A stretch of 64,000 nucleotides of DNA. Origin: Candidatus Levyibacteriota bacterium (GTDB taxonomy: Bacteria; Patescibacteriota; Microgenomatia; Levybacterales; UBA12049). The stretch lies in contig JACOXT010000003.1 in assembly GCA_016182235.1 (NCBI GenBank), forward strand, positions 130,209-194,208, given 5' to 3'. Below, piece by piece: positions 29,515 to 47,475 of this stretch. Made by a program: the position numbers and the translations under genes. Every line of letters starts with the position of its first letter. The first letter of the stretch is position 1. The notes under the pieces were generated by a model. The model was not told the origin of the DNA. It did not search any database and was given only the letters and a program-made list of their open reading frames with translations.

Positions 29515-29875
29515 AACAATGCTTGAGGTTGCGGATAATTCAGGGGCAAAAAGCCTAATGGTTATTCATATTTTTGGAGGATCAAAAAGAAGGTATGGGT
29601 ATGTTGGAGACACGCTTAATTGCGTAGTAAAAGGAGCAAGCAGTGTTGGGTTGGTTAAAGATAATCAGATAGTAAAAGTAGTTATTGTTAGAACTAGAAA
29701 AGAGAAGAGAAGAAGTGACGGATCCTATATTAGATTTTCTGATAACGCGGGAGTCCTGATCGATAATTTGACAGACAAAAATCCGATCGGAACAAGAATT
29801 TTTGGTCCAATTGCTCGAGAAGTTAAAGACAAAGGTTTCTCAAAGATCGCAAGTATGGCACTTGAGGTTGTTTGA
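29501..29875 (+). CDS. rplN: 50S ribosomal protein L14
   Basis: MVQHRTMLEVADNSGAK. Confidence 0.97.
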   Translation: MVQHRTMLEVADNSGAKSLMVIHIFGGSKRRYGYVGDTLNCVVKGASSVGLVKDNQIVKVVIVRTRKEKRRSDGSYIRFSDNAGVLIDNLTDKNPIGTRIFGPIAREVKDKGFSKIASMALEVV

Positions 29876-29925
29876 AAAAATATGACCCCTCAACAAGTTC
29901 AGGGTCATAGTGAGGAATTCGAACT

Positions 29926-30231
29926 ATGAAATTAAAAAAAGGAGATAATGTCAAGGTGGTTTTGGGAAAAGATAAAGGTAGGATTGCCAAAATAGAAAAA
30001 GTATTTTCAAAGACTGGAAAAGTGCTTGTTACTGGGGTCAATCAATATAAAAGGCATCTTAAGGCAAGGTCTCAAAGTCAGCGTTCGGAGATTATTACGA
30101 TCACAAAACCTTTACCTTTACAAAACGTTTCTTTGATTTGTCCGAACTGTAAAAAACTAACAAGAGTTGGGTTTAAAATCGAAGCTGATAAGAAAATTAG
30201 AGTCTGCAGGAAGTGCAAGAAAGAGATATAA
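29926..30231 (+). CDS. rplX: 50S ribosomal protein L24 (with a C-terminal CxxC...CxxC ribbon)
   Basis: MKLKKGDNVKVVLGKDKGR; CPNC...CRKC. Confidence 0.93.
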   Translation: MKLKKGDNVKVVLGKDKGRIAKIEKVFSKTGKVLVTGVNQYKRHLKARSQSQRSEIITITKPLPLQNVSLICPNCKKLTRVGFKIEADKKIRVCRKCKKEI

Positions 30232-30244
30232 TCTGAAGCTTAAT

Positions 30245-30784
30245 ATGGATAATTTGAGAGATAAATTTAGAAAACAAATAATTAAAGATTTACAAAAAGC
30301 GCTAGGTCTTAAAAACCTTCAGGCCGTACCTCATTTGACAAAAATTGTTCTTAATATGGGAGTAAAAGATGCGCTTTTAGATAAGAAAAATTTGGAAAAA
30401 GGAAGCATGGTTCTTACTCAAATAACCGGGCAGAAACCCAAGTGGACTTCTGCCAAAAAATCTATATCCACTTTTAAATTAAGAGAGGGAGACAGGATAG
30501 GAATGATGGTAACGCTTCGAGGCAAGAGAATGTATGATTTTTTTGAAAGATTAATTTCTGTGGTATTGCCAAGACTTCGTGACTTTCATGGTTTGGATAA
30601 GAAAAGTTTTGATGGACATGGAAACTATTCAATGGGTTTTTCGGAAAGTACAGTCTTTCCCGAGATAGATCCTGGAAAAATTGATAGAATACAAGGGTTT
30701 GAAGTAAGTATCGCAACTAATGCAAAAACAGATAAGGAGAGCTTTGAGCTTCTAAAGGCATTGGGAATGCCGTTTCAAAAATAA
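30245..30784 (+). CDS. rplE: 50S ribosomal protein L5
   Basis: Start moved to the ATG at 30245 ([17 protein letters not shown]...[13 protein letters not shown]). The ORF-track start at 30167 would overlap rplX. Confidence 0.93.
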
Positions 30785-30786
30785 AT

Positions 30787-30972
30787 ATGGCTAAAGTATC
30801 TAATATCATAAAAATGAGGAGAAAGCAGAAATATAAAGTAAGAAATAAAAATATTTGCAATCTCTGTGGCAGGTCAAAAGGGTATATGAGGAGATTTGGT
30901 TTATGCAGGCTTTGTTTTAGGGATCTTGCATTAAAAGGTCAGTTGCCCGGAGTGACTAAAGCAAGTTGGTAG
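30787..30972 (+). CDS. rpsN: 30S ribosomal protein S14, type Z (zinc-binding, 61 aa)
   Basis: [22 protein letters not shown]. Confidence 0.95.
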
Positions 30973-30989
30973 TTCTAGTTCTGTAGAGA

Positions 30990-31391
30990 ATGGATGATAT
31001 GAATCATAAAGTATCGGATTTAATAATTAGAATTAAAAATGCATCAAGGGCTCGAAGGCGCGAGATAGTTGTTGACAATTTGCGTATCAATAAGGCAATT
31101 TGTAAAGTTTTGGTTGACTTAGGATTTTTGGAAGAAGCTAAGACAGACACCAAGGATGGAAAAAAGGTTCTGGTTGCCAGGATTAAGTATTATAAAAGAG
31201 AACCTGTTTTGAATGATGTCAAGGTAGTTTCCAAACCTTCCCTTAGGATATATGCTGGAGCAAGTAATGTTTCAGGGATTCAAAGGCGCGGGAAAGTAAC
31301 AGCAGTGCTCTCAACTAGTAGGGGAATTATGACAGGACAGGACGCGGTAAAGAGGAAGATTGGAGGCGAGGTTCTTTTTAAGATATGGTAA
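30990..31391 (+). CDS. rpsH: 30S ribosomal protein S8
   Basis: VSDLIIRIKNA...; position in the cluster. Confidence 0.94.
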   Translation: MDDMNHKVSDLIIRIKNASRARRREIVVDNLRINKAICKVLVDLGFLEEAKTDTKDGKKVLVARIKYYKREPVLNDVKVVSKPSLRIYAGASNVSGIQRRGKVTAVLSTSRGIMTGQDAVKRKIGGEVLFKIW

Positions 31392-31397
31392 TACACT

Positions 31398-31952
31398 ATG
31401 TCTAAACTTGCAAAAAAACCAGTTATTATAAAAGAAGGTGTTAATGTAACAATCGAAAATGGCACTCTTAAGGTAAGTGGACCTAAGGGAGTCCTTGCTT
31501 TTAAAATTCCCGAGGGAGTTGTTGTCAAAGTTACGAATGGCCAGGGCATTGTCACAATTTTGGAAAAAAATACTGAAGATTTAAAGCCTGTACTTGGTTT
31601 GACAAGGGCAATGTTGGCGAATATGGTTACGGGGGTATATAGTGGATTCGAGAAGAAGCTTGAGTTGTCTGGAGTTGGATATAGAGCGCAAGTTTCCGGA
31701 AATGATCTTTCGCTTTCTGTAGGATTTTCTCATCCAGTTAAGATCGCGAAGGCTCCCGGAATAAACTTTGAAGTCGCAGATAATATTATTACTGTTTCTG
31801 GAATTGATAAAGATAGTGTTGGAAGTATGGCAGCAGAGATCAGAGCCATACAGCCACGCGAACCCTATAAGGGTAAAGGAATTGGGTATGTGGGTGAGCG
31901 AATAAGGAGAAAAGCCGGAAAAGCGGCAAAGACATTGGGGGCAACGAAATAA
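31398..31952 (+). CDS. rplF: 50S ribosomal protein L6
   Basis: SKLAKKPVIIKEGVNV...; position in the cluster. Confidence 0.94.
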   Translation: MSKLAKKPVIIKEGVNVTIENGTLKVSGPKGVLAFKIPEGVVVKVTNGQGIVTILEKNTEDLKPVLGLTRAMLANMVTGVYSGFEKKLELSGVGYRAQVSGNDLSLSVGFSHPVKIAKAPGINFEVADNIITVSGIDKDSVGSMAAEIRAIQPREPYKGKGIGYVGERIRRKAGKAAKTLGATK

Positions 31953-31960
31953 ATTAATAT

Positions 31961-32308
31961 ATGGATAAAAATATTCAGAAATTAAGAAGAAAAGAAAGAA
32001 CTCGGAAAAAAATTAAAGGCACAAAAGATCGGCCAAGACTTTCTGTGTTTAAATCGAATCGTTTTAGCTATGCGCAGTTGATAAATGATGAGACTGGAGA
32101 GACAATTGTTGGCGTATCGGAAAAACATATTTCTCAAAAAGTAAATTTAAAAAAGAAAGAATTGGCAAAAAAAGTTGGGATTCTGTTAGCAAAAAAAGCG
32201 CAAGATATGAAGATAAAAAAAGTTGTATTTGACAGGGGGAGTTATACTTATCAGGGAAGAGTAAAGGAGATTGCGGAAGGAGCAAGGGAAGGAGGTTTGA
32301 AATTTTGA
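31961..32308 (+). CDS. rplR: 50S ribosomal protein L18
   Basis: RPRLSVFKSNRFSYAQLIND...FDRGSYTYQGRVKEIAEGAREGGLKF. Confidence 0.95.
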   Translation: MDKNIQKLRRKERTRKKIKGTKDRPRLSVFKSNRFSYAQLINDETGETIVGVSEKHISQKVNLKKKELAKKVGILLAKKAQDMKIKKVVFDRGSYTYQGRVKEIAEGAREGGLKF

Positions 32309-32796
32309 TGAATGATTCTAGATTTTCAAAAGCGAAGAGCCCAGACGGTTTTGAAGAAAAAATAGTTCAGGTTAATAGAGTTTCTAAGAAAACAAAAGGC
32401 GGAAATAAGATTGGATTTTCGGTTTTGGTAGTTGTTGGAGATAAAAAAGGTAAGGTTGGAGTGGGACTAGGAAAAGCACCGGATATATCTGCGGCCATTA
32501 AAAAAGGAGTATCAATAGGAAAGAAGCATTTGATTACCGTACCCATTATAAATGGAACTATTCCTTTTGAATTTAATATAGAGCTTGGTGCTGCGAAAAT
32601 AATGATTAAGCCAGCACCGCGCGGCAGCGGAGTTATCGCGGGAGGTGCCGTAAGAAGCGTTGTTGCTGCGGCGGGAATAGAAAATATTTCATCAAAGGTT
32701 TTGGGAACAAAGAATCAGGCAAGTAATGTTTATGCAACAATCACAGCCTTAAAAAGAATGACAGAAAGATATAATAAGGAAAGAAAAATTAAATAG
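32305..32796 (+). CDS. rpsE: 30S ribosomal protein S5
   Basis: VVQVNRVSKKTKGGNKIGFSVLVVVGD. Confidence 0.95.
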   Translation: MMNDSRFSKAKSPDGFEEKIVQVNRVSKKTKGGNKIGFSVLVVVGDKKGKVGVGLGKAPDISAAIKKGVSIGKKHLITVPIINGTIPFEFNIELGAAKIMIKPAPRGSGVIAGGAVRSVVAAAGIENISSKVLGTKNQASNVYATITALKRMTERYNKERKIK

Positions 32797-32798
32797 GT

Positions 32799-33239
32799 AT
32801 GAAGCTTTCATCTTTGACAAAAATAACGGCAGTTGAGAAAAGAAGACTTGGACAAGGCCCTGGGTCAGGAAGGGGAAAAACAGGCGGTCGTGGCACAAAG
32901 GGGCAAAAAGCAAAAAGAACAATTCCTCTTGATTTTGAAGGAGGAGCGCTTCCTCTTATAAAAAGACTTCCTTTTATGAGAGGGAAGGGTAAAAATAAGC
33001 TGTTTAAGAAAAAACCAATTATTATTAATGTAAAGGCATTAAATCTATTGAAAAAGGATAGCATAGTTGACTTAAAGACTCTTGTTGCAAATCGTATAGT
33101 TCTTGAGGAGGAGGGAAAAATGTATGGTGTTAAAATTTTGGGAGATGGAGAACTTTCTATTCCCCTAACTGTAAAATTGCCAGTTTCCAAGGGAGCTAGG
33201 AAAAAAATTGAGAAAATAGGTGGAAAGGTGGAGGTATGA
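32799..33239 (+). CDS. rplO: 50S ribosomal protein L15
   Basis: [17 protein letters not shown]. It starts 3 nt after rpsE, so there is no L30 gene. Confidence 0.94.
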
Positions 33240-34522
33240 ATAGCATATTCGAGGTTTTTACCAGAAGCTTAAAGACTCCAGAGGTAAGGAAAAAACTTCT
33301 ATTTACGTTTGGGATATTTGTAATATTTAGAATTTTTGCTCATATACCAGTTTCGGGTGTGAATTTAGCCGCGTTAAAAGCGCTTTTTTCTCAAAATCAA
33401 TTCTTAGGACTTTTGGATATCTTTTCCGGGGGAACTCTTGCAAATTTTTCAGTGATGGCTCTGGGGCTTAATCCTTATATCAACTCTTCAATTATCTTGC
33501 AGCTTTTAACCATGGTTTTTCCAAAGCTTGAGGCTTTATCAAAAGAAGGAGAAACTGGACGGCAGAAAATAAATCAATATACTAGATTTCTTACAGTTCC
33601 CTTGGCGGTTTTACAAGCCGTTGGAATGTACGCTTTACTTAGAAGCCAGGGAATTATTTCCTCTTTAGACCCAGTTAACATTGTTTCATTTGTCGTCACA
33701 ATGACTGCCGGTACAATGCTTCTTGTCTGGCTGGGAGAACTTATTTCTCAAAAAGGAGTTGGAAATGGCATATCTTTATTAATTTTTGCGGGAATAGTCA
33801 ACAGAATTCCTGTAATTTTTGGTCAAACAATATCAACTGCGCAAGCCGCCAATTATTTCAATCTGGCGGTCTTTATTGTGATGGGGGTAATGGTAATAGC
33901 TTCAATAGTTGTTATTAATGAAGGCACTCGCAAGATAACGGTTTATTATGCTAAAAGAGTAAGAGGAAACAAGATGTATGGAGGTCAGTCAACGCATCTC
34001 CCCCTTAGGGTTAATCAGGCAGGAGTTATTCCGATCATTTTCGCGGTTTCTTTGGTGCTTCTTCCATCAATTGTCGCGAACTATCTGACAGCATCTCCAA
34101 ATAAGATTTTATATAACATTGCTACATCAGTTACAGCGCTATTCAATCCGTCCGGCCCATTTTATAACGGATTGTACTTTTTATTAGTTGTTGGGTTTAC
34201 TTATTTTTATACCGCAGTAATTTTTAGCCCAAAAAAAATAGCCTCAGAAATACAGAAATACGGCGGTTTTATTCCGGGCATTAGGCCGGGAAGTCCTACC
34301 GCAAACTACTTAAACTATATCTTAACTCGCATAACGCTGGCCGGTGCAATTTTTTTAGGTACCATAGCAATCTTTCCAGAAATCGCCCGCGCGCTTACAA
34401 ATGTTCAGACTCTTGTTCTGGGCGGAACGGGAATACTGATTGTGGTCTCTGTGGTTTTGGAGACTATTAAGAAAATTGAAGCTCAATTGGTAATGAGAAG
34501 TTACGAAAGATTCACTAAGTAA
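33236..34522 (+). CDS. secY: Preprotein translocase subunit SecY
   Basis: 10-TM protein; [16 protein letters not shown]; position in the cluster. Confidence 0.97.
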
Positions 34523-34533
34523 AATCCTAAACT

Positions 34534-35076
34534 ATGAAGATAATATTGATTGGTATTCAAGGTGCGGGAAAATCTACTCAAGGAAACCTTCTTTCAAAGG
34601 AACTCGGAATTCCCTACCTTTCAACAGGACATATATTTAGGGCTCTTGCCAAGGAGAAGACAAAACTTGGTCGCTACATAAAAGAGGTAATGAATGCAGG
34701 GTATCTTATCCCTGACAGAAAAACAATGTCGATTGTTAGCGACTATCTCAAAAGATCTAAATATCAGAATGGATATATATTGGACGGTTTTCCAAGGACT
34801 ATTGTGCAGGCAAAGGCGTTTAGAAATGGAATTGACAAAGTGATTTACCTTAGAGTCTCTGATAAAGAGGCATTGTGGAGACTTTCTTATAGAAATGGGG
34901 ATGACCGAAATGATGAGACATTGATGGCGATTAGAAAAAGAATCGAGCTTTTTCATAAATTGACAGAGCCGGTTTTAGATTTTTACCGAGCAAAAAAAGC
35001 GTTAATTGAGGTTGACGGCGAAAGGCCGATAGGGGAGATTTATAAGGAAATTTTAGATAAAATTAACACTAAATAA
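34534..35076 (+). CDS. adk: Adenylate kinase (short form without a zinc lid)
   Basis: GIQGAGKSTQ, ILDGFPRTIVQA. Confidence 0.88.
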   Translation: MKIILIGIQGAGKSTQGNLLSKELGIPYLSTGHIFRALAKEKTKLGRYIKEVMNAGYLIPDRKTMSIVSDYLKRSKYQNGYILDGFPRTIVQAKAFRNGIDKVIYLRVSDKEALWRLSYRNGDDRNDETLMAIRKRIELFHKLTEPVLDFYRAKKALIEVDGERPIGEIYKEILDKINTK

Positions 35077-35081
35077 TTGCT

Positions 35082-35735
35082 ATGGTTGAGGCAGGATCTG
35101 GTATTCAAGGTAGTTCGCCAGAGGCTCAAGAAAGAAGGCGGGAAATAGTTGTGATTTGCGGTCCGGAAGGGTCCGGAAAAACAACTCAAGCAATTAATCT
35201 TTCGAGAGATTTAAATTTACCTTATGTCACAATGGGGGATGTATTTGTAGAACTAGCAAAAGAGGAAACAGAATTCGGCCTAGAAATTAAAACTATGCTA
35301 AAAGAACATAGATACTCGACCATAAAAGAGTTTGAAACGGCTTTTCTTTGGAGAATGGCAAAAGGTGATGTTAAAGAGGGATTTATACTTGATGGAGGAT
35401 TTAGGACAGTAGAGCAAGTTCAAAATTTTGAGTTACAGCTCAGAAAAGCAGGGATATCAGAGAGCATTCCTATTGATGTTGTATATTTCCGTGTAGCAGG
35501 ATGGGAGGCAATAGATAGGGTTTTAACTGGAAACAGAGAGGGTCGTTTGTATGACACTGAGGAAGGAGTATTAGATAGACTTTCTCATCATTATTATCAA
35601 TTAGGAGAAAGAATGTCATATGCCCGAAGGAAATGGCCATTTATTATAATAGATTGCACAAATAAGACTGAAGAGATGATCGAAGAAGAGACAATGAAAA
35701 ATTTAGCAGCTAACAGGGTGGTGATGAAAGAATGA
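35082..35735 (+). CDS. Adenylate-kinase-family paralog (divergent NMP kinase)
   Basis: GPEGSGKTTQ, ILDGGFRTVEQV. Confidence 0.65.
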   Translation: MVEAGSGIQGSSPEAQERRREIVVICGPEGSGKTTQAINLSRDLNLPYVTMGDVFVELAKEETEFGLEIKTMLKEHRYSTIKEFETAFLWRMAKGDVKEGFILDGGFRTVEQVQNFELQLRKAGISESIPIDVVYFRVAGWEAIDRVLTGNREGRLYDTEEGVLDRLSHHYYQLGERMSYARRKWPFIIIDCTNKTEEMIEEETMKNLAANRVVMKE

Positions 35736-35935
35736 ATGAAAGATATCAGGAATTGCATCCGTTACATTTTGAAATTCTAAATGAAGTTAAAGATGCTTCA
35801 GGAAATAAGCGGGTATCATTAGCAAAGGATTATATTAGCGGAATCGATGGAGGTTTAGCAACAACGTTTGATACGGAAGTGAACTTTGAGGGATTATTAA
35901 TACTTAAGAATCTACTCGAGAAAAGACTAAAATGA
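35732..35935 (+). CDS. Hypothetical 67-aa protein embedded in the kinase array
   Basis: 4-nt overlap with the upstream gene. No recognisable motif. Confidence 0.45.
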   Translation: MNERYQELHPLHFEILNEVKDASGNKRVSLAKDYISGIDGGLATTFDTEVNFEGLLILKNLLEKRLK

Positions 35936-35949
35936 AGTAATTCAAACGC

Positions 35950-36534
35950 ATGGCGCTAACAGAACATAAACCTTTTATTATCGGAATTACCGGGGCGTTT
36001 GGGAGCGGCAAGTCAACAGCCGCTAATTTTTTTGAAGATAAGGGGCTTAAAAAAATCGTTCTCTCCTCTTTCATTGAGGAGGAAGCGAAAAAAAGAGGGA
36101 TAAAAAAGATTACCAGAAAGTTGTTACAAGATATTGGAAATGATTTAAGAGATAAATTTGGTTCTGGAATTCTTGCTAAAAAAGCAGTTCTATTTTTGAA
36201 AAATGAGAGGTTAGATAGGGCAGTTGTTGATGGAGTGAGAAATCTTGGTGAAGTTGAAGAATTTAAAAAGAATAGCAATTTTGTTCTTATCGCGGTTGTA
36301 GCTAATCGAAAAACCAGGTTTGAACGCTTAAGAAATCTTAAAAGACGTGAAAAGTTAAATTGGGATACATTCGAAAAGCTTGATAGAAGAGATCTGGGCA
36401 TTGGAGAGAAACAAACAGGTCTTCAAACAGCTTTTTGCATAGCTTCGGCTGATATATTTGTCGAAGGAAATGAAGATATTGATGAATTTAGGCAAAAACT
36501 AGATAAGATTCTAAGAAGAATTGAGAATTTATGA
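35950..36534 (+). CDS. P-loop kinase of the dephospho-CoA-kinase / dNMP-kinase-like type
   Basis: IIGITGAFGSGKSTAANFF resembles the CoaE P-loop. Substrate unknown. Confidence 0.55.
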   Translation: MALTEHKPFIIGITGAFGSGKSTAANFFEDKGLKKIVLSSFIEEEAKKRGIKKITRKLLQDIGNDLRDKFGSGILAKKAVLFLKNERLDRAVVDGVRNLGEVEEFKKNSNFVLIAVVANRKTRFERLRNLKRREKLNWDTFEKLDRRDLGIGEKQTGLQTAFCIASADIFVEGNEDIDEFRQKLDKILRRIENL

Positions 36535-37091
36535 TAATTGTTTTTATAGGCCCGCCATTTGCGGGAAAAGATACTCAAGCAGTAATGCTGTCAAAGAAAT
36601 TATCGTTATCGCTATTTAGCATGGGTGGTTTGATAAGAGAAGCTCGTGAGAAAGGAGACAAAGTTATAGAAGATGCATATAGGAATTATTCATTGAAAGG
36701 CTTGCATCTGCCGATTGGTATTAAGTTTGGGTTGCTTAGGAAAAAAATAGAAAATCTCAATGACGGATTCATTCTAAACAATTTCCCTGCGACAAATGAA
36801 GACCTGCAAGTTTTTAATGAATATTTAAAAGAGCATAATCTAAGCGTATATAAAGCATTTTATCTAAATATCTCAAAAAATATAATGCAAAAAAGACTTG
36901 ACGCATCAACCAGAAAAAGATCGGATGATGATTTAAAAATAATTTTGGCAAGAAGAGAGATACAAGACAAAGATAGAATTCCTGTTATCAATTACTTTAG
37001 AAATTTGGGAATACTTGAGGAGGTAGACGGAGAAAGAGAGATTGATGAGGTAAATAAAGATATATTAAGTCGTTTGAGAAAAATAACATGA
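36531..37091 (+). CDS. Adenylate-kinase-family paralog (third copy)
   Basis: GPPFAGKDTQ, ILNNFPATNEDL. Confidence 0.65.
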   Translation: MIIVFIGPPFAGKDTQAVMLSKKLSLSLFSMGGLIREAREKGDKVIEDAYRNYSLKGLHLPIGIKFGLLRKKIENLNDGFILNNFPATNEDLQVFNEYLKEHNLSVYKAFYLNISKNIMQKRLDASTRKRSDDDLKIILARREIQDKDRIPVINYFRNLGILEEVDGEREIDEVNKDILSRLRKIT

Positions 37092-37870
37092 TCAATATTA
37101 AAACTAAAGAGGAAATAGAGATAATGAGAGAAGGGGGAAGGATATTGGCGGAAGTTTTATTTACGCTTATTGAAAGTGTGAGGCCAGGAGTTTCTGAGCT
37201 GGATATTGATAAACTTGCCGAAACATTAATTTTAAAGGCGGGAGGAGAACCAGCATTTAAAAGAGTGAAAGACTACAAAAATACAATTTGTGTATCTACA
37301 AATGACGTTGTAGTTCATGGCGTCCCAACTGACTATACATTTAAAGAAGGGGACGTTGTCGGAATAGATTGCGGAGTCTATTATAAAGGATTTAATACGG
37401 ATATGGCGGAAACGCTTCGCGTCTCAACAGAGAACGAAGGACTAAGAACTAAAAACTCAAGTAATGAAATAGATAGGTTTTTGGAGACTGGGATGAAGGC
37501 GCTTCAGGCTGGGATAAATGCCGCTCATTTAGGAAATAGAGTTGGACATATTTCTAGGGCAATCCAGAGCATTGTTGATAAGGAAGGATACTCTGTTGTA
37601 AAGAGTCTTGTTGGGCATGGGATTGGGCAAAACCTTCACGAGGAGCCAGATGTGCCTGGATATCTTTCTCAATCTCTTGATAAGACTTCGGAGTTAAGAC
37701 AGGGAATGGCAATTGCGATTGAGGCCATCTATAATATGGGAAAAGATGATGTAATTTACTCCAACTCAGACGGATGGACTATTAAAACTAAAGATCAAAG
37801 CTTGTCAGGGCTTTTTGAAAGAACAGTCGCGATTACAAAAGAAGGGCCATTAATCTTAACTAAGAAGTGA
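37088..37870 (+). CDS. map: Methionine aminopeptidase type I
   Basis: GIDCGVYYKGFNTDMAET, GHGIG, IEA. Carries an extra segment of about 9 aa encoded by a heptamer repeat. Confidence 0.93.
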   Translation: MINIKTKEEIEIMREGGRILAEVLFTLIESVRPGVSELDIDKLAETLILKAGGEPAFKRVKDYKNTICVSTNDVVVHGVPTDYTFKEGDVVGIDCGVYYKGFNTDMAETLRVSTENEGLRTKNSSNEIDRFLETGMKALQAGINAAHLGNRVGHISRAIQSIVDKEGYSVVKSLVGHGIGQNLHEEPDVPGYLSQSLDKTSELRQGMAIAIEAIYNMGKDDVIYSNSDGWTIKTKDQSLSGLFERTVAITKEGPLILTKK

Positions 37871-37899
37871 TTGAAGTTTTGAGGCAGATTTGATATAAT
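37871..37899 (+). promoter_or_regulatory. Internal promoter TTGAAG-17-TATAAT upstream of infA
   Basis: TTGAAG at 37871-37876 and TATAAT at 37894-37899. Confidence 0.55.
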
Positions 37900-37907
37900 T
37901 TGTAGTT

Positions 37908-38126
37908 ATGCCACATCAGGGTTCTTTTGAAATTGAAGGAGTTGTTAAAGAGTCTTTGCCGAATACCCTTTTTAGAGTTGAGTTGGCAAACGGGGTTGTT
38001 ATCTTATGTCATTTATCAGGCAAGATGAGAATGAATTTTATTAAAATTTTGCCCGGAGACAAAGTGCGTATAGAGATGACTCCCTATGATAAAGCAAAAG
38101 GAAGGATAGTGTACAGATATAAATGA
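37908..38126 (+). CDS. infA: Translation initiation factor IF-1
   Basis: [20 protein letters not shown]...[16 protein letters not shown]. Confidence 0.97.
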
Positions 38127-38236
38127 AAGTTCAGGCGAGTGTTAAAAAAAGATGCGTTAAGTGCAAAATTATAAGAAGACGCGGAGTTGTCCGTGTTGTT
38201 TGTGACAATCCAAAGCACAAGCAGAGACAAGGATAA
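38123..38236 (+). CDS. rpmJ: 50S ribosomal protein L36 (37 aa, absent from the ORF track)
   Basis: Hand translation [41 protein letters not shown] overlap with the infA stop. Confidence 0.93.
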
Positions 38237-38237
38237 T

Positions 38238-38645
38238 ATGAGGATTGCAGGATATAATTTACCGGATACAAAAAGAGTAGATATTGCTCTGACCTACGTT
38301 TATGGAATCGGACGGAGAAATGTTGTGGGAATTCTTAAAAAAGCCGGTGTTGAAAGCTTTAAAAGAGTGAATGTTCTTTCTGAAGAAGAGCAGAAAAGAA
38401 TACAAAATGCTTTAGAGACATATAAACTTGAAGGAGATCTAAGAGCAGAGGTAAGCACTGATATTAAAAGATTAAAAGAAATTTCTTCTTATAGAGGAAC
38501 GCGTCATAGCAAGAATCTTCCAGCGAGAGGACAGCGCACAAGATCTAATGCGAGAACCAAAAGAGGAAAAAGAGTTACAATTGGAGCGATTAAAAAAGAA
38601 GTCGCTGTAAAGCTCGGGATTGACAAGAAAGAAGAGGGGAAATAG
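38238..38645 (+). CDS. rpsM: 30S ribosomal protein S13
   Basis: Start moved to the ATG at 38238 (MRIAGYNLPDTKRVDIALTYVYGIG). Confidence 0.95.
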   Translation: MRIAGYNLPDTKRVDIALTYVYGIGRRNVVGILKKAGVESFKRVNVLSEEEQKRIQNALETYKLEGDLRAEVSTDIKRLKEISSYRGTRHSKNLPARGQRTRSNARTKRGKRVTIGAIKKEVAVKLGIDKKEEGK

Positions 38646-38651
38646 TTTTAT

Positions 38652-39050
38652 ATGGCGGATAGTAAAAGTGAAAAAGAAAAAGTAAAGAAAAAAAATGTTC
38701 TGGTCTCTAGTAACGGTAGAGCTTATATAACCTCTACATTTAATAATACTATAGTTACAATAACAAATGACAAAGGAGAGGTTATCGGATGGAGTAGTGC
38801 CGGAGCAAGCGGTTTTAAGGGTACAAGAAAATCTACTCCATATGCTGGAACTACAGCAGCAGAGAATGTTACTAGAAAGGCAGTTGCAAAAGGTCTGAAG
38901 ACAGTTGAGGTATACGTAAAAGGTCCGGGGGGAGGTCGGGACTCTGCGCTTCGCGGAATTAAAAGCGGCGGACTTTCGATATCTTTGATTGCAGATATAA
39001 CACCTATGCCACATAACGGACCGAGGGCTAAAAAGAAGAGGAGGATCTAG
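38652..39050 (+). CDS. rpsK: 30S ribosomal protein S11
   Basis: [15 protein letters not shown]...WSSAG..GFKG.RK.TP.A. Confidence 0.96.
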
Positions 39051-39064
39051 TTAACTTATAGTTT

Positions 39065-39142
39065 TTGGTCTTTGGTCTATAGCAAATGACTAAAGACTAA
39101 TAGCAAATGACTAAAGACTAATAGCAAATGACTAAAGACTAA
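39065..39142. repeat. 2 x TTGGTCT followed by 3 perfect copies of a 21-bp unit (tagcaaatgactaaagactaa = three heptamers), ending immediately before the rpsD ATG
   Basis: Read directly: copies at 39080-39100, 39101-39121 and 39122-39142. uuggucuuugguc can pair with gacuaaagacuaa using G-U wobbles. Confidence 0.9.
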
Positions 39143-39143
39143 T

Positions 39144-39752
39144 ATGGGAAGATATACTGGGCCGAAACATAAAACAGCAAGAAGAGAAGGAATAAATATT
39201 CTAGAAAAAGAGTCGGAAAGCCTCAAAAGAAGGTTGAATGTTCCACCGGGAGGCATACAGAGAAAAAAAATAAGAAGAAGGCTTTCTGAATATGGCCAAC
39301 AGCTTCGAGAGAAACAGAAAGCTAAAGCAATATACGGGCTTTTGGAAAAACAGCTTGCAAATTTGGTTAAAGAATTGGGAAAGAAAAAGGGAGAAACAGG
39401 AGAAATGATAATAGCCTCTCTAGAAACAAGATTAGACAATATCGTTTTTCGTTTGGGTTTTGCAAAAACAAGAGCACATGCTCGCCAGCTTGTTGCTCAT
39501 AAACACGTTTTAGTTAATGACAAGAAAGTAAATATCCCATCTTACTATGTAAAGGTAAATGATGTTATTTCTTTGACTTCCCCAACGCAGAGTAATGTTC
39601 AGATAGCGCCTCTTCTCTCGGAAAAAGATCGTAAGGTTTTACCATATCTTAAAAAAGAGGGAACAGTAGGGAAGCTTTTAAGAATGCCCAAAAAAGATGA
39701 CGTCCAAGTTCTTTTTGATTTGCAGCCCATTATTGAATATTATTCAAGATAA
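39144..39752 (+). CDS. rpsD: 30S ribosomal protein S4
   Basis: MGRYTGPKHKTARREG... Confidence 0.96.
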   Translation: MGRYTGPKHKTARREGINILEKESESLKRRLNVPPGGIQRKKIRRRLSEYGQQLREKQKAKAIYGLLEKQLANLVKELGKKKGETGEMIIASLETRLDNIVFRLGFAKTRAHARQLVAHKHVLVNDKKVNIPSYYVKVNDVISLTSPTQSNVQIAPLLSEKDRKVLPYLKKEGTVGKLLRMPKKDDVQVLFDLQPIIEYYSR

Positions 39753-39768
39753 TGGTACAATGTAGCTT

Positions 39769-40692
39769 ATGGTAAATCCGATATTTAAGGTAAAAGAAGA
39801 GAAAACTGGCGAAAATGAAAGCAGATTTATTATTGAACCTTTAGACCAGGGTTTTGGTCATACTCTCGGAAATGCTTTACGAAGAGTGCTTTTAACTTCT
39901 ATAACAGGTGCTGCAGTCACTTCAGTTAAGATTCCTGGTGTAAAACATAAATTCTCAACCATTTCTGGAGTTAAAGAAAACGTTATTGATCTTTTACTTA
40001 ATATAAAAGGTTTAAATTTTAAACTTCTTGACTCAACGAATAAAGGAAAGGTTTCCTTGTCAATTAAAGGGCCGAAGAAAATAACAGCTTCAGATTTTGA
40101 CCTGCCTGAAAATATTGAGATTGTAAATAGCGACCATTATATTGCTTATATTAACGATAAAAAGGCAAAGCTTGAAATGGATTTGACAGTCGAGCAAGGC
40201 TTGGGATTTACTTCGTCTGAAGATCAAAAAACCAGCTCACTTGGCGTAATGCCGCTAGATGCAGTTTTTACCCCTGTTAGAAGAGTAAGCTACGAAGTCT
40301 CTGCTACCCGAGTTGGCAGACAGACAGATTTAGACAAACTAGTTTTGAATATTTTGACGAATGGAGTTGTCAGTCCAAGGGAGGCATTGGATGAAGCAGC
40401 TGAAATATTAAGCTCGTACTTTTTGCAGGTTTATGAACCAAAATATTCGGAACCCTCAAAATCATCAACTCAAGAGTCTATGGCTGTTGATAGTATTTCA
40501 AAACTTACAATCGACGAACTAGATTTGCCAACGAGAATTTATAACAGTCTTCGCAATGGAAGCGTTGAGACTATAGGCGATCTTTTGTCTTCAACAAAAA
40601 AGAACTTGATGTCAATGCGAAATATGGGAAACAAATCAATCATGGTTATAGAGGAAAAACTTAAACAAAGAGGGGTATCGTTAGCACAATAA
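39769..40692 (+). CDS. rpoA: DNA-directed RNA polymerase alpha subunit
   Basis: GFGHTLGNALRRVLL; C-terminal domain LDLPTRIYNSLRN. Confidence 0.96.
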   Translation: MVNPIFKVKEEKTGENESRFIIEPLDQGFGHTLGNALRRVLLTSITGAAVTSVKIPGVKHKFSTISGVKENVIDLLLNIKGLNFKLLDSTNKGKVSLSIKGPKKITASDFDLPENIEIVNSDHYIAYINDKKAKLEMDLTVEQGLGFTSSEDQKTSSLGVMPLDAVFTPVRRVSYEVSATRVGRQTDLDKLVLNILTNGVVSPREALDEAAEILSSYFLQVYEPKYSEPSKSSTQESMAVDSISKLTIDELDLPTRIYNSLRNGSVETIGDLLSSTKKNLMSMRNMGNKSIMVIEEKLKQRGVSLAQ

Positions 40693-40776
40693 TTGTGCTA
40701 AATCTCAAATCTTAAATCGCAAAGCCCAAAGCTGCAGCTTTCAGTTTTGACTTTTGACATTTGAGTTTTGAGATTT
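40681..40776. repeat. 9-bp perfect hairpin across the rpoA stop codon, then a mirror array of heptamers (5 x AAANNNN | 6 x NNNNTTT)
   Basis: ttagcacaa-taa-ttgtgctaa; then aaatctc aaatctt aaatcgc aaagccc aaagctg | cagcttt cagtttt gactttt gacattt gagtttt gagattt. Confidence 0.85.
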
Positions 40777-40781
40777 TTATT

Positions 40782-41279
40782 ATGCGGAAAAATGTTTTTG
40801 GAAGAAAGTTCAAAAGAGACACAAATGAGAGAAAAGCTTTGTTTAAAAGTTTGATATCTTCTTTGATTTTAAATGGAAAAATTAAGACAACTTTGGAAAA
40901 GGCAAAAGCTATAAAAGGAGATGTTGATAAAATTGCCAATAAGGCAAAAAAGGGAGAGGCGCGATATCTCTTACAGCCCATTTTGGACAGTGATGTATTA
41001 GAGAGATTAATCAAGAATATTGTACCCAGGGTTTCTGATAGAAATAGCGGATACACAAAGCTTACCAAACTTGGAAGGAGGTTTTCTGACAATGCTCAAA
41101 TGGTTTTGATGGAATGGATAGGAGAAGAAATTAAAGATCAAGGATCTCGCCTCGCAGCGAAGCGGGCAAACATAAAAAATGAAAACAAAAAACTTGCAAT
41201 TATAGAAGCACCCGTCTCTGCTAAGGCTTCGGCGGGCAAGCAGAAAAAACGTGAAGTACAGAAAGCAAGAAGGAAATAG
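40782..41279 (+). CDS. rplQ: 50S ribosomal protein L17 with a Lys/Ala-rich C-terminal extension
   Basis: Start moved to the ATG at 40782 (MRKNVFGRKFKRDTNERKALFKSL...KTTLEKAK). Confidence 0.92.
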   Translation: MRKNVFGRKFKRDTNERKALFKSLISSLILNGKIKTTLEKAKAIKGDVDKIANKAKKGEARYLLQPILDSDVLERLIKNIVPRVSDRNSGYTKLTKLGRRFSDNAQMVLMEWIGEEIKDQGSRLAAKRANIKNENKKLAIIEAPVSAKASAGKQKKREVQKARRK

Positions 41280-41283
41280 TTCT

Positions 41284-41709
41284 ATGAACAATTCAACTAA
41301 GGCAACAAAATTATCTGATGTCAAACGAGAGTGGCATTTGGTTGATGTTGAGGAGAAGATTTTAGGGAGAGTGTCCTCGGATATAGCGAAGATTTTAATG
41401 GGCAAATCAAAGCCCTATTATGTTAGCAACTTAGACTGTGGAGATTATATAGTTGTCGTAAACGCCAGTAAAGTTAAAGTTACCGGAAAAAAAGAATACT
41501 TGAAAAAATATTCTCATCATTCAGGATACCCGGGGGGATATACAGAAGAGAGTTTAGGTGCACTTAGAAAAAGAAACCCCTCAGAAATTATAAGGCATGC
41601 TGTTTTGGGGATGTTGCCGCAAAATAAATTAAGGGATAGAATGATGACTCGTTTGTTTGTGTTTGAAGGTATGGATCACTCGTATAAAGATAAATTCAAA
41701 AATGGTTAA
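41284..41709 (+). CDS. rplM: 50S ribosomal protein L13
   Basis: Start moved to 41284 (MNNSTKATKLSDVKREWHLVDVEEKILGR). Confidence 0.93.
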   Translation: MNNSTKATKLSDVKREWHLVDVEEKILGRVSSDIAKILMGKSKPYYVSNLDCGDYIVVVNASKVKVTGKKEYLKKYSHHSGYPGGYTEESLGALRKRNPSEIIRHAVLGMLPQNKLRDRMMTRLFVFEGMDHSYKDKFKNG

Positions 41710-42157
41710 GCAAACAAATAAAATAACACAAAATAATAAAGATTATATTTCTGCTCTTGGGAGACGAAAAAACGCCACAGCTTTAGTCCGTTTGTATAAA
41801 AATGATGTGACTTTGTTCGGAGGAGTTGTTAAAAAAGGAGAGATTGTTGTTAACAAAAAAAATGCATTAGAATATTTTGGAAAAGACACGGAATCAATAT
41901 GTAGAGAGCCCTTACGTATTACAAATATCGAGAACAAGTTTGCTGTCTCGATCAAGGTAACTGGTGGAGGCAATAGGGGGCAATTAGACGCTGTAGTTTT
42001 GGGAATGGCTAGAGCCTTGGATAAATTTGACCGCGAAAAGTTCCACACAGTTCTTAAAAGAAAGGGAATGCTTACTCGAGATTCTAGAATTAAAGAAAGA
42101 AGAAAAGTTGGAATGGGTGGAAAATCAAGAAGAAAGAAACAGTCTCCAAAGAGATAA
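41702..42157 (+). CDS. rpsI: 30S ribosomal protein S9
   Basis: Start moved to 41702 (MVKQ...ALGRRKNATALVRL; C-terminal KKQSPKR). Confidence 0.93.
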   Translation: MVKQTNKITQNNKDYISALGRRKNATALVRLYKNDVTLFGGVVKKGEIVVNKKNALEYFGKDTESICREPLRITNIENKFAVSIKVTGGGNRGQLDAVVLGMARALDKFDREKFHTVLKRKGMLTRDSRIKERRKVGMGGKSRRKKQSPKR

Positions 42158-42214
42158 CCTGCAACCACAGAAATACTGAAGTCTTCTGAAGTACAGAGGT
42201 CGTTCGCATTTTTT

Positions 42215-42775
42215 CTAAAGTACGCTGCTATGTAGCAACATACTTTGGAAATGTCTATTTTCTAATAATTCTTGTACTTCCAACACGCTCCAGGGGGAAT
42301 ATTTATTTGGGTTTTTATTTATATCTTCAACAAATGTTTTCCATTCAATCCATTTAGTGTCTTCAATCTCATCTTTATTGATCACTGGTTTCTGATTTGT
42401 AAATCCAACAAGAACAGGACATATCTCATTTTCTACAATTTCATCCTTTTCTACCCTATAAGAAAAGTTGGGTAGTATTTCGTGTAATTCGCCAAGTTCT
42501 ATTCCTAATTCAAATATTGCTCTCCTTTTTGCAGCATTAATACTTGACTCATTTAACTTTGGATGTCCGCAGACGGAATTTGACCATACCAACGGCCAAG
42601 TTTTTTTCTTGCGACTTCTTTGCTGAAGCAATAGTTCTCCATCAGAATTAAATAAAAAAACAGAAAAACCCCTATGAAGCGGCGTATTAGCATTATGAGC
42701 TGCTAATTTTGGAGAGGTTCCCAAAACATTATTTTGTTTATCAACTAAAACAACGTATTCTTGATTACTATTCAT
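42215..42775 (-). CDS. idi: Isopentenyl-diphosphate delta-isomerase, type 1 (Nudix fold)
   Basis: LHRGFSVFLFNSDGELLLQQRS..K..WPLVWSNSVCGHP. Confidence 0.85.
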   Translation of the reverse strand: MNSNQEYVVLVDKQNNVLGTSPKLAAHNANTPLHRGFSVFLFNSDGELLLQQRSRKKKTWPLVWSNSVCGHPKLNESSINAAKRRAIFELGIELGELHEILPNFSYRVEKDEIVENEICPVLVGFTNQKPVINKDEIEDTKWIEWKTFVEDINKNPNKYSPWSVLEVQELLENRHFQSMLLHSSVL

Positions 42776-42781
42776 ATTACT

Positions 42782-43099
42782 TTATTTTTTCCACAACGCG
42801 ATTAAGAAATTAATTAACAAGTATAATAATAAAGCCTGCCAAAGAAGTATTGAAATTAAAACAGTGCTTAAGAAAATTGCAATCGCTTCTCTTCTTAGGC
42901 CATAAAAATCCAATAGAAATGCTCCAAGTCTGCCAAAAACAAAAAAGGAAGCAAGACCTATAAATGGGGAGAATATAACAGGTAAAAGGACAGGTCGTCT
43001 TGTAACTTGTCTTATTGTGGAGAAAGGATGGAATGTAATACCAAGAAGTGTCTTGGTCCATACATAAGCGACAAAGATTAAAAATGTACTTTTCTTCAT
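42782..43099 (-). CDS. Hypothetical integral membrane protein
   Basis: Three predicted TM helices. Follows the sigma factor operon. Confidence 0.5.
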   Translation of the reverse strand: MKKSTFLIFVAYVWTKTLLGITFHPFSTIRQVTRRPVLLPVIFSPFIGLASFFVFGRLGAFLLDFYGLRREAIAIFLSTVLISILLWQALLLYLLINFLIALWKK

Positions 43100-46095: not shown

Positions 46096-46806
46096 ATGAT
46101 CAGAGAAAGAGAATCAGGTAGCATTAATGGGGTCCACCTTGAACAGGAAAGAAGAAAAGGATTTGGAGTACTTTTGCCTATCGTTGAGATAGATCCCAGT
46201 AGAAATGGAGAAAATATAACACAGCCTAAATTGTTCACTATTATAGAGAAGAAATCTAAGCCTGAGACAGGAAAGATAGCTGGACAAATTTCATTTCCAG
46301 GCGAAACTGCAAAAATTCATAATGAACCGATGGGGGACAATATAATTGGAGGAATAGCAGAGGTTACAGATAATGATTATACAATTAGAAACAATATTTT
46401 TTTCATGCGAGATTCCTCTTTTATTAAAGAAAGAATTTTTATAAACGGCAATCCTTTTGATATGGCTATATTAATACATGTTGGTCCTTTCGATAATGCC
46501 ATCAAACCTGTGGATGTTAATGAAGTTTCACCAAACGGACCAATGACAATTCAAGAAATTAGAAGAAAAGATCCTACCAGAGATTCTAGAATTGTAAGAC
46601 GAATTGTGCATCAAGTCGCAGACTTAGAAGATTCGGAAGGTCTCATAAGAAGGGTCGTATCTGACTTTTTTAATTTTCCTACCTTGAGAATTCCTTTGCG
46701 AGCTATTTTGCCTGATGGCTTTTCCTCTATAAGGGATTTTTTTCAAGAAAGAGAAAGGACTGTAGACGTTATTGGCTCACTTTCCAAACCTTCTCTGTCT
46801 TCTTGA
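46096..46806 (+). CDS. Hypothetical protein with a degenerate Nudix-like segment
   Basis: GQISFPGETAKIHNEPMGDNIIGGIAEVT lacks the REx2EE catalytic residues. It starts 3 nt after the kinase gene. Confidence 0.45.
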   Translation: MIRERESGSINGVHLEQERRKGFGVLLPIVEIDPSRNGENITQPKLFTIIEKKSKPETGKIAGQISFPGETAKIHNEPMGDNIIGGIAEVTDNDYTIRNNIFFMRDSSFIKERIFINGNPFDMAILIHVGPFDNAIKPVDVNEVSPNGPMTIQEIRRKDPTRDSRIVRRIVHQVADLEDSEGLIRRVVSDFFNFPTLRIPLRAILPDGFSSIRDFFQERERTVDVIGSLSKPSLSS

Positions 46807-47475
46807 GTATTCTGCAATAGCGTTTTCTATATCTTCGTCATTAAGATCTGGAAAGTGTTTCTCAAGAAAAAAATACTCCGCATATGCTGCTTGCCAGATC
46901 ATAAGGCCTGATGTTCGCATCTCTCCACTTGTTCTTATGATTAAATCCGGATCAGGATGAGGTTGATTAGCAGTATCTAAAAATTGGCTAAAGTTCTCTA
47001 TGTTAATACTTAATACTTTATACTTTATACTTAATACTTTCTTTATTGCCCTTATTACTTCATCGCGTCCTCCATAATCGAGCGCAATATTTAAGACATA
47101 TTTGTCAAATGATTTTGTTTTTTCCTCTGAATTTTGGATTTTTTTAAGTAAACCTTTTGGGATTCTGTCTTTTCTTCCAAGATGAATAATTCTTATTTTT
47201 TCCTTCATTGCCTCCTTTAGATTTTTGTCTATGAATATTTCGTACATCTTCATAAGGTAATTCACTTCTTCTTTACTTCTGTCCCAATTTTCAGTTGAGA
47301 ATGCCCACATTGTGAGAGTATTAACGCCAAGGGATCGAATTTTTCTCCCGATTTTTATTGCCACATCAAATCCTCGTCTATGTCCTTCAAGACTTGGAAG
47401 TCTGTGTTCTTTTGCCCACCTTCTGTTTCCATCAGGAGTAATTGCTATATGATTAGGGATATTAAGATTAGCCAT
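46777..47475 (-). CDS. uppS: Isoprenyl transferase (undecaprenyl diphosphate synthase family)
   Basis: HIAITPDGNRRWAK, DLIIRTSGEMRTSGLMIWQAAYAE. Confidence 0.92.
   Translation of the reverse strand: MANLNIPNHIAITPDGNRRWAKEHRLPSLEGHRRGFDVAIKIGRKIRSLGVNTLTMWAFSTENWDRSKEEVNYLMKMYEIFIDKNLKEAMKEKIRIIHLGRKDRIPKGLLKKIQNSEEKTKSFDKYVLNIALDYGGRDEVIRAIKKVLSIKYKVLSINIENFSQFLDTANQPHPDPDLIIRTSGEMRTSGLMIWQAAYAEYFFLEKHFPDLNDEDIENAIAEYSRRQRRFGK
47003..47037. repeat. Five tandem heptamers (ttaatac ttaatac tttatac tttatac ttaatac) inside the uppS coding sequence
   Basis: Read directly. On the minus strand it encodes KVLSIKYKVLSI. Confidence 0.8.

Follow-up and report, generated by a model that had tools for sequence, protein, structure and literature searches.

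The stretch of DNA analysed here, hereafter the window, comprises 64,000 nucleotides of contig JACOXT010000003.1 from Candidatus Levyibacteriota bacterium, a member of the candidate phyla radiation (CPR), and in it the gap between rpoA, encoding the RNA polymerase alpha subunit, and rplQ, encoding ribosomal protein L17, is filled largely by a mirror-symmetric array of degenerate heptamers that is predicted to fold into a long hairpin. Arrays of this kind are periodic, mostly in steps of 7 nt, conserved within families, dispersed over different spacers and restricted to the S10-spc-alpha ribosomal-protein cluster, and their hairpins are modestly more stable on the sense strand than on the antisense strand. 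The reading that we favour, with somewhat less than even confidence, is that the array is one copy of a dispersed and co-transcribed class of palindromic repeats which works as an RNA hairpin between cistrons and changes in size by slippage; from the sequence comparisons we infer the RNA-level role, the origin by slippage and some means of copying between sites. In full-text literature searches no account of such elements in CPR came up, and the heptamer-palindrome class is apparently previously undescribed.

Anatomy of the rpoA-rplQ spacer

The element lies inside the S10-spc-alpha cluster (24.3-42.2 kb of the window) in an AT-rich setting, the G+C content of the window being 36%. Its parts and the two flanking genes, each an open reading frame (ORF), are as follows.

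39769-40692, + strand: rpoA (RNA polymerase alpha subunit, 307 aa), ORF; RpoA relatives matched in 131 public loci
40681-40701, + strand: hairpin 1, a perfect 9-bp stem (ttagcacaa/ttgtgctaa) with the rpoA stop codon TAA as its loop
40700-40734, + strand: 5' arm of hairpin 2, five AAA(T/G)CNN heptamers (aaatctc, aaatctt, aaatcgc, aaagccc, aaagctg)
40735-40741, + strand: cagcttt, the sixth right-hand unit, apical loop in the minimum-energy fold
40742-40776, + strand: 3' arm of hairpin 2, five (C/G)A(G/C)NTTT heptamers (cagtttt, gactttt, gacattt, gagtttt, gagattt)
40777-40781, + strand: T-rich tail TTATT, between the hairpin base and the rplQ start codon
40782-41279, + strand: rplQ (ribosomal protein L17), ORF with its start ATG at 40782

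Hairpin 1, which an earlier sequence-only reading of this DNA had pointed out, is a perfect inverted repeat with full complementarity between ttagcacaa (40681-40689) and ttgtgctaa (40693-40701) on either side of TAA (40690-40692), and it takes in the last three rpoA codons as well as the stop. It abuts directly on hairpin 2, the AA at 40700-40701 being common to both. The same reading had described the whole 89-nt gap as built from 7-nt units, which is true of 77 of the 89 bases and not of the first 7, which form the right arm of hairpin 1, nor of the last 5, which are the TTATT tail. Within those 77 bases (40700-40776) its description can be read directly from the sequence: 11 heptamers follow each other without gaps, 5 of the form AAANNNN and then 6 of the form NNNNTTT, around the perfect central palindrome aaagctgcagcttt (40728-40741), and the outermost units aaatctc and gagattt are exact complements. 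Hairpin 2 is imperfect and AU-rich, has a stem of ~35 bp and ends 5 nt 5' of the rplQ ATG, the tail together with the final three stem bases reading TTTTTATT.

Both the periodicity and the hairpin stand well clear of background. Tandem Repeats Finder reports period 7 on both arms with a unit match of 80-82%, and the lag-7 autocorrelation of 0.65 (z = 10) was equalled by 0 of 300 shuffles. The hairpin score of 21.0 is the highest in the 64-kb window, the maxima of five shuffled windows being 12-17.5, and the RNA fold check that the sequence-only reading had suggested, carried out computationally, returned for 40670-40790 a minimum free energy of -35.0 kcal/mol (z = -3.3) and a fold of two adjacent hairpins. 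Dyad symmetry is real, the arms being 77% complementary across 35 nt, but it is not a mirroring of particular units: unit-by-unit pairing gives 27 of 35, against a mean of 25.0 for random pairing of units, and 19% of permutations reach 27. A unit-by-unit mirror correspondence was therefore rejected as not significant, and the symmetry is that of a shared degenerate unit (AAANNNN/NNNNTTT).

Several local explanations were considered and set aside. The TGA triplets at 40748, 40755, 40762 and 40769 close all three reading frames in the 3' arm, but an all-frame stop cassette as the cause of period 7 was rejected because AT-rich spacers would close the frames by chance; read-through of the stop codon past hairpin 1 was likewise rejected, since an in-frame TAA follows two codons on. 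No Shine-Dalgarno-like motif is present upstream of rplQ, and likewise none upstream of rpsC and rpsD; this is not a peculiarity of genes behind hairpins, because only ~10 of 28 cluster genes have such a motif anyway. The sequence TTGACA-18-TATTAT (40754-40783) is the best sigma-70-type consensus match in 10 kb (11/12), but as an internal promoter it was rejected since its -10 box overlaps the rplQ ATG and since in L019 and L002, two of the public relative loci (designated by L-numbers throughout), the spacing is broken or the hexamers are degraded; it arises incidentally from the TTTTGAC units together with the T-rich tail. Mechanically called ORFs also cross the element, for example from a TTG at 40761.

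Conservation and dispersal of the class

By its RpoA the window falls within Candidatus Levybacteria (Microgenomates, CPR/Patescibacteria). The rpoA-rplQ gap was extracted from the 131 public loci, the best of which have RpoA sequences 72-86% identical to that of the window. Among the 75 Levybacteria loci with a measurable gap (58-75% RpoA identity), ~45 carry a hairpin of 60-150 nt with a best lag of 7 at z >= 4 (z = 4-12), and ~8 further loci have a best lag of 10 with 10-nt units (TACGAATTTA). The typical Levybacteria gap measures 60-150 nt and is made up of a single long hairpin, followed by a T-rich tail and then the ATG, this last arrangement of tail and start codon being seen in most orthologous spacers, whereas in other Microgenomates (RpoA 45-53% identical) the gap is mostly 0-12 nt. 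The unit varies by clade and includes AAATCTC (the family of the window), AAATCCG/AAATTCG, TAGAAGA/TTGAAGA/TAGAGGG and TTTCAGT.

Within a family the spacer is conserved, at 87-93% identity overall; one and the same aligner gives 0.87-0.90 within families, 0.61-0.75 between families and 0.71 when the order of the 7-mers is shuffled. Four-fold degenerate sites in the neighbouring rpoA, by contrast, are saturated, with an identity of only 0.37-0.50. L002, whose RpoA is 74% and whose four-fold sites are 42% identical, aligns with the window without gaps and agrees with it at 32 of the 35 bases of the 5' arm and at 38 of the 40 that make up the 3' arm and tail (70 of 75). In ten genomes of the TAGAAGA family ~75 columns in the centre hardly change at all, variation being found in the apical loop and the basal part; within this family spacer identity does not follow host divergence. 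Length varies in quanta of 7, 14 or 21 nt or by deletions at the apex; the window lacks ~50 apical bases (arm and apex) that are present in L052, L002 and L019. Variation in unit number among relatives, which the sequence-only reading had proposed to look for, is therefore found, same-family spacers measuring 66-166 nt with gaps of 7 and 14 columns and apical insertions or deletions. That reading had also likened the array to the short tandemly repeated repetitive (STRR) heptamers of heterocystous cyanobacteria; the likeness extends to the 7-nt unit, the period of 7 and the intergenic location, and not to the remainder, as the arrays are mirror-symmetric, the units differ among spacers and they are not fast-evolving. 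The rpoA-rplQ spacer is conserved and is not a hypervariable STRR-like microsatellite.

Structures other than heptamer hairpins occur at the same position. In L015, L017, L061, L066 and L078-82 the spacer holds an unrelated GC-rich hairpin with a T-run, which points to some structure being kept there. A multi-stem structure of 106-133 nt, ~50% G+C and ending in a T-run, is found in L061, L078, L080-L082 and L104 (also L063, L067 and L105), is conserved among its carriers, is unrelated to the heptamer hairpins and is possibly a distinct structured RNA or a terminator. GC-rich mini-hairpins lie inside AT-rich heptamer hairpins or replace them (L052:1355-1386, L019:4025-4041, L113:2910-2950 and 8895-8935, the L015 and L017 spacers, and nested also in L087), with the sequences CCCGCCTG...CGGGCAGG in L052, CCCCCTCTGGGGACAGG in L019 and a CCGCCTG...GGCGGG type in L015, L017 and L113; these appear to be a second family of dispersed mini-palindromes.

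Dispersal was assessed by a census of spacers of 45-260 nt in 63 non-identical Levybacteria loci and the window, a spacer being called periodic at z >= 4. Periodic spacers number 64 of 260 (lag 7 in 50, lag 10 in 7, lag 8 in 6 and lag 9 in 1), and only 1 of 300 coding windows reaches the same level, so that period-7 arrays are indeed enriched beyond this one locus, as the sequence-only reading had expected. When rpoA-rplQ is left out, lag 7 is found in 25 of the other 35 periodic spacers, of which many are mirror arrays. In Levybacteria 60 of 154 spacers inside the cluster are periodic, compared with 3 of 105 outside it (Fisher p = 5e-13), counts which include orthologous and hence non-independent loci and in which "outside" means within ~10 kb of rpoA, plus the window. 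A similar distribution is seen at other gaps in outgroup Microgenomates (20 of 89 inside, 2 of 69 outside), and none of 16 spacers in four non-CPR loci is periodic.

Copies of one family are found at different sites. The TAGC family, with ~55 invariant columns, occupies four different spacers in three genomes, namely rplV-rpsC in the window, rpsK-rpsD in L001 and both sides of rpmJ in L092, the window and an L092 copy being 98% identical over 48 nt. L088 has two copies with 99% identity over 68 nt and L113 two composite copies with 92% identity over ~150 nt, and arrays of the AAATCTC type occur additionally in the infA, rpsK-rpsD and rplQ-rplM spacers.

Three spacers of the window are outstanding in both folding energy per base and lag-7 periodicity (rplV-rpsC, rpsK-rpsD and rpoA-rplQ), and all three lie in the cluster. 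The first two, together with two direct arrays and a period-8 array, bear out the statement of the sequence-only reading that related arrays exist elsewhere in the window:

27912-27979, + strand: rplV-rpsC element, a mirror array of TAGCNNN heptamers, its left arm taking in the rplV stop codon
39061-39144, + strand: rpsK-rpsD element, a mirror array with two TTTGGTC units opposite GACTAAA units
18408-18481, + strand: period-8 mirror array, AAATTGTT x4 and AACAATNN x4, in the leader-peptide codons of a pilin-like gene
18973-19008: direct array (AAATTTC)x5.1, perfect, in codons 4-15 of a PilX_N-like pseudopilin ORF (18964-19371)
47003-47039: direct array (TTAATAC)x5.3, 93% matching, inside the undecaprenyl-diphosphate synthase coding region

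At 39079-39144 the right arm and loop of the rpsK-rpsD hairpin are triplicated as a perfect 21-nt tandem (x3.1; 21 nt = 3 x 7 nt), which looks like a very recent expansion. The period-8 array occupies the codons of a 27-residue leader before the N-methylation motif of the pilin-like gene (18395-18967), and its unit type also occurs in ribosomal-operon spacers of L011 and L084. The (AAATTTC)5 array at 18973-19008 is a candidate switch for phase variation by strand slippage in a CPR pilus gene, because one unit more or fewer would put the codons out of frame; each of its units also fits the X XXY YYZ slippery-heptamer pattern. The undecaprenyl-diphosphate synthase gene (46777-47475, minus strand; Pfam E = 1.7e-70), in which the array encodes KKVLSIKYKVLSI, is presumably essential and so an odd location for a slippage-prone repeat. 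Elsewhere in the cluster, the spc region shows an unusual expansion of four consecutive P-loop kinase-like ORFs (34534-37091) between secY and a methionine-aminopeptidase-like ORF, which by their N-terminal motifs are adenylate-kinase-like (two to three of them) and dephospho-CoA-kinase-like.

Proposed action and rival explanations

Evidence bearing on the RNA level comes from folding energies, from substitutions and from geometry. The window hairpin is more stable in sense (-35.0 kcal/mol) than in antisense (-29.2 kcal/mol), a gap of 5.8 kcal/mol, and across 54 periodic spacers the means are -25.6 and -22.9, with the sense strand stabler in 34 and the antisense strand in 19 (p = 0.0045). One-sided changes in the AAATCTC family mostly yield G.U (at least 13 cells) as opposed to A.C (3 cells). 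In hairpin 1 pairing is kept through double changes (GCACAA/TTGTGC in the window, GCTCAAT/ATTGAGC in L002, ACGCAAT/ATTGCGT in L019), one of which compensates a synonymous GCA-to-GCT change; hairpin 1 is missing in the closest relative, L052. Covariation was rejected as proof of RNA structure, being uninformative in the TAGAAGA family (0 of 37 pairs) and weak in the AAATCTC family (2 of 23). Across the class the base of the hairpin follows the stop codon by a median of 9 nt and precedes the start codon by a median of 8 nt (7 nt and 5 nt in the window), so that folding would restore the stop-start distance of ~0-12 nt seen in the outgroup and cover the downstream initiation region.

According to the favoured reading, the class, which occupies gaps between consecutive S10-spc-alpha genes in Levybacteria and other Microgenomates, is a set of small non-coding repeat elements, and the spacer would be transcribed within the operon mRNA and fold into a long, imperfect, AU-rich hairpin that juxtaposes the rpoA stop with the rplQ start and covers the rplQ initiation region. 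Its action would be post-transcriptional, the hairpin perhaps determining, as a barrier or a site of processing, how stable individual operon segments are, and/or tying the translation of rplQ to ribosomes finishing rpoA, and leaky termination at the U-rich tail may also occur. The 7-nt phasing probably arose through slipped-strand gain and loss of 7-nt units or their multiples, with deletions at the apex, in an AT-rich genome, and need not be a code that is read; the over-representation of heptameric repeats in bacteria and a polymerase-footprint/slippage hypothesis have been discussed previously (PMC4692102) and are consistent with phasing by slippage.

A number of points weigh against this reading, in addition to the non-independence of the census loci noted above. 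The functional steps are all deduced from sequence. The arms of the window hairpin are no more complementary than random pairing of its own units would make them, a structure-blind count of arm mismatches gives 70 G.T and 61 A.C and hence no wobble excess, and in the TAGAAGA family none of 37 predicted pairs is compensatory, the stems being invariant. The G.T and A.C counts therefore do not speak for pairing selection at the RNA level, which the sense and antisense energies do support, modestly. Taken together, these three results (window arms that pair no better than permuted units, no wobble excess, no compensatory pairs in the TAGAAGA family) mean that conservation extends to mismatched positions, and conserved mismatches fit sequence-specific recognition better than plain selection for pairing. 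Slippage alone fails to explain why 7 prevails over 8-10 and sits uneasily with strong conservation. The tail of the class averages 3.59 T, compared with 2.97 A in the mirrored upstream position (p = 0.2), and at least 5 T are found in only 12 of 37 hairpins, which speaks against the RNA-sense interpretation. The class is also found between a promoter-like site and infA, where translational coupling is impossible: the window has TTGnnn-N17-TATAAT 5' of infA at 37871-37907 with the ATG within ~8 nt, and of the map-infA spacers compared with it (L002, L008, L066, L068, L092 and L103) several have a heptamer-phased hairpin between the -10 box and the ATG. Finally, L011, L095 and L109 have gaps of 31-33 nt without a hairpin, and L058 and L100 retain only a 31-nt remnant corresponding to the 3' part of a TAGAAGA-type arm, so the element can be lost and is dispensable.

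In view of the conserved mismatched positions and the dominance of one register, the heptad arrays may alternatively be read by an oligomeric nucleic-acid-binding protein advancing in 7-nt steps, whose binding would open or close the hairpin and thereby control ribosomal-protein synthesis; the models would be HutP (NAG-N4), TRAP or cold-shock/OB-fold proteins (~7 nt per domain) on RNA and ribbon-helix-helix proteins such as omega of pSM19035 on DNA. We consider this unlikely. It would account for the 7-nt register of most periodic spacers and of ~12 of ~18 distinct unit families (as grouped by us), for the conservation of unit-specific sequence, mismatched positions included, for the lack of covariation in the TAGAAGA family, for window arms that pair no better than permuted units, for the lack of a wobble excess and for the limitation of the elements to one functionally coherent gene cluster; many units consist of a 3-nt core plus N4 (TAG-N4 in two families, (C/G)AG/GAC-N4 six times in the 3' arm of the window), and Bacillus subtilis CspB is reported to bind heptamer repeats with one protein per heptamer (PMC4679880). 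Yet at least three units coexist in one genome (AAATCTC, TAGCNNN, TTTGGTC/GACTAAA) and at least ten in the phylum, which would require many proteins or very loose specificity, the latter contradicting the tight conservation; periods of 8, 9 and 10 also occur, and no candidate protein has been identified. An extended version, in which the heptad palindromes form a hitherto unrecognised cis-regulatory system of Microgenomates specific to the ribosomal-protein cluster, recognised at 7-nt steps by an oligomeric factor that binds RNA or DNA (of the Csp/OB-fold, the HutP/TRAP-like or the ribbon-helix-helix-like kind), giving bacteria with reduced genomes global control of ribosomal-protein stoichiometry and copying itself between cluster gaps, strikes us as distinctly doubtful. 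The dispersed copies may alternatively be selfish, non-autonomous, palindromic mobile DNA of the kind of MITEs (miniature inverted-repeat transposable elements), REP or REPIN, spreading by copy-and-paste, tolerated because it folds out of the way and without function for the host. One family does occur at different sites and in different genomes, near-identical paralogues exist within one genome (99% and 92%), presence, absence and remnant states are seen, GC-rich mini-hairpins are nested in the AT-rich hairpins of L052, L019, L087 and L113, and TAGAAGA spacer identity is independent of host divergence. Dispersed copies within and between genomes and presence/absence polymorphism are MITE-type traits; terminal inverted repeats are present trivially, the whole element being an inverted repeat. 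The clustering in ribosomal-protein genes is unexpected under random insertion, however, and genomes with saturated synonymous sites still retain orthologous copies at one and the same site; no target-site duplication was seen by eye at the two nested insertions inspected (L052 and L019), and no transposase or RAYT gene was seen within the 64-kb window. An origin from phages or mobile elements was examined through viral contigs and rejected: the exact 19-mer AAATCTCAAATCTTAAATC from the AAATCTC core occurs in 19 viral stretches, ~9 of them distinct (L132-L150, IMG/VR contigs; some 61-62% G+C), always as short direct AAATCT(C/T) arrays in unrelated contexts without a mirror arm or hairpin, and the TAGC and TAGAAGA cores have no matches there. 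Selfish DNA is accordingly judged unlikely as the explanation.

Functions tied to this one position are less likely. An ordinary intrinsic (Rho-independent) terminator or attenuator after rpoA, with the heptamers incidental, would agree with a hairpin followed by TTTTTATT, with the T-rich tails after most orthologous hairpins, with GC-rich replacements that resemble classic terminators and with a 5' arm that is A-rich and a 3' arm that is T-rich in 30 of 37 hairpins. The sequence-only reading had held that strict phasing and dyad symmetry are not expected of a simple terminator, and the hairpin is indeed not of the ordinary terminator type of this genome: a consensus terminator scan makes no call at it, its stem is ~35 bp and AU-rich, and the terminator-like hairpins that follow the two genes upstream of rpsJ, by position presumably fusA and tuf, each consist of a short GC stem and a T7-8 run. 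The T-tail of the class is not significantly enriched, the class also occurs in the 5' leader between the promoter-like site and infA, 90% sequence conservation would be unnecessary, and an rplQ promoter would not fit behind the hairpin, which means that efficient termination would starve the cell of L17, L13 and S9; termination as the whole explanation is for us improbable. An autoregulatory rplQ leader bound by L17, such as the L17 r-leader predicted in Actinobacteria and Proteobacteria (PMC7247131), would suit the location immediately 5' of rplQ and the strong within-family conservation, and it has that precedent. Unrelated sequences occupy the same position in different Levybacteria clades, though, families of the class also precede rpsC, rpsD, rpsM and infA, and cmscan of 24000-43000 against Rfam gave even at E <= 1 only a match at chance level, with a family that is unrelated (27.7 bits, where the gathering score is 70), which leaves an L17 leader very improbable.

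The class matters in several respects. CPR represent a large share of bacterial diversity in which the regulation of gene expression is almost unstudied, and here an easily recognised, conserved, non-coding class without an Rfam family sits in the most highly expressed operons of Microgenomates. If it acts on mRNA, it would offer a handle on operon-internal control of ribosomal proteins in organisms that are so far uncultivable; if it is mobile, it would be a rare case of repeat elements specialised on one gene cluster. Heptamer simple-sequence arrays and palindromic dispersed repeats, usually separate, are combined here, and the class provides tangible data on a long-standing problem, the over-representation of 7-nt repeats in bacteria. 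From a practical point of view, such elements can break assemblies and mislead gene callers.

Comparison with known repeat systems

Elements of the REP (repetitive extragenic palindromic)/BIME, REPIN, ERIC and Correia types are dispersed, non-coding, imperfect palindromes that are co-transcribed within operons and whose RNA hairpins can affect transcript stability, termination and processing by RNase III. The class described here shares with them its dispersal, its non-coding nature and its imperfect intercistronic palindromes. REP-type elements differ in having no internal 7-nt periodicity, in being distributed genome-wide and in carrying tags (GTAG/CGTC, or terminal repeats accompanied by target duplications) together with a RAYT or transposase that serves them, features not found here; in comparison with a G+C-rich palindrome of 20-40 bp, the present element is 77 nt long, AT-rich and without a GTAG/CGTC tag at either end. 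Translational coupling is known in ribosomal-protein operons, and as in intercistronic coupling or exonuclease-barrier hairpins the structure lies between a stop and a start, covers the initiation region and, judging from its geometry, would have the upstream ribosome abutting the stem; the known examples are short individual structures, however, and not members of a repeated periodic family.

Arrays that are read by proteins include (UAG-N4)x3 of HutP, (G/UAG-N2-3)x11 of TRAP, the direct and inverted heptads of the omega repressor and the 8-bp met boxes of MetJ. Common to these and to the present arrays would be a fixed short period, a conserved core and a variable spacer, but each of those systems has one protein and one motif, whereas many motifs coexist here. 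A HutP-type antiterminator site has two sets of three NAG triplets with 4-nt spacers between them. The 3' arm of the window can be written in this manner as CAG-N4 CAG-N4 GAC-N4 GAC-N4 GAG-N4 GAG-N4, of which 4 of 6 are NAG, and the TAGC and TAGAAGA families as (TAG-N4)n, patterns which AT-rich heptamers could give by chance.

STRR sequences resemble the class in their 7-nt unit and intergenic location; they are direct head-to-tail arrays of near-identical units with few genome-wide consensus sequences, whereas here the half-arrays are inverted, the units are degenerate, three spacers of the window have three different units and the lineage belongs to CPR. The TAACTGA heptamers of Beggiatoaceae and cyanobacteria are placed just 5' of start codons, in many cases where no Shine-Dalgarno sequence is present, and have been suggested to act post-transcriptionally (PMC4679880). 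Heptamer arrays directly 5' of start codons are thus a shared feature, but the TAACTGA system consists of direct repeats of one fixed heptamer (169 direct sets and one indirect), in contrast with the inverted arrays of many heptamers described here. A TIGR array, which also occurs in CPR, has units of ~36 nt (edge repeat, spacer A, loop repeat, spacer B) and stands beside a Tas gene with a Nop domain (PMC12045711); this possibility was rejected, as the period is 7 and not 36 and the array is flanked by rpoA and rplQ with no Tas gene.

The GGGAATC heptamer arrays of Xanthomonas form 70-75 convergent pairs per genome with the potential for stem-loops (Rehm et al. 2015, PMC4692102), and like the present class they are intergenic, occur between the same gene pairs in related species and vary in length. 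They are G-rich and quadruplex-forming, belong to one unit family used genome-wide and are not tied to a single cluster, while the arrays described here are AT-rich, belong to many unit families, have degenerate yet conserved units and are limited to the ribosomal-protein cluster. None of the known systems compared unites heptamer arms in mirror symmetry with a multiplicity of unit families, strong conservation and confinement to the ribosomal-protein cluster. The closest that have been described are the Xanthomonas GGGAATC arrays and the REP, ERIC and Correia palindromes, followed more loosely by the STRR and TAACTGA repeats.

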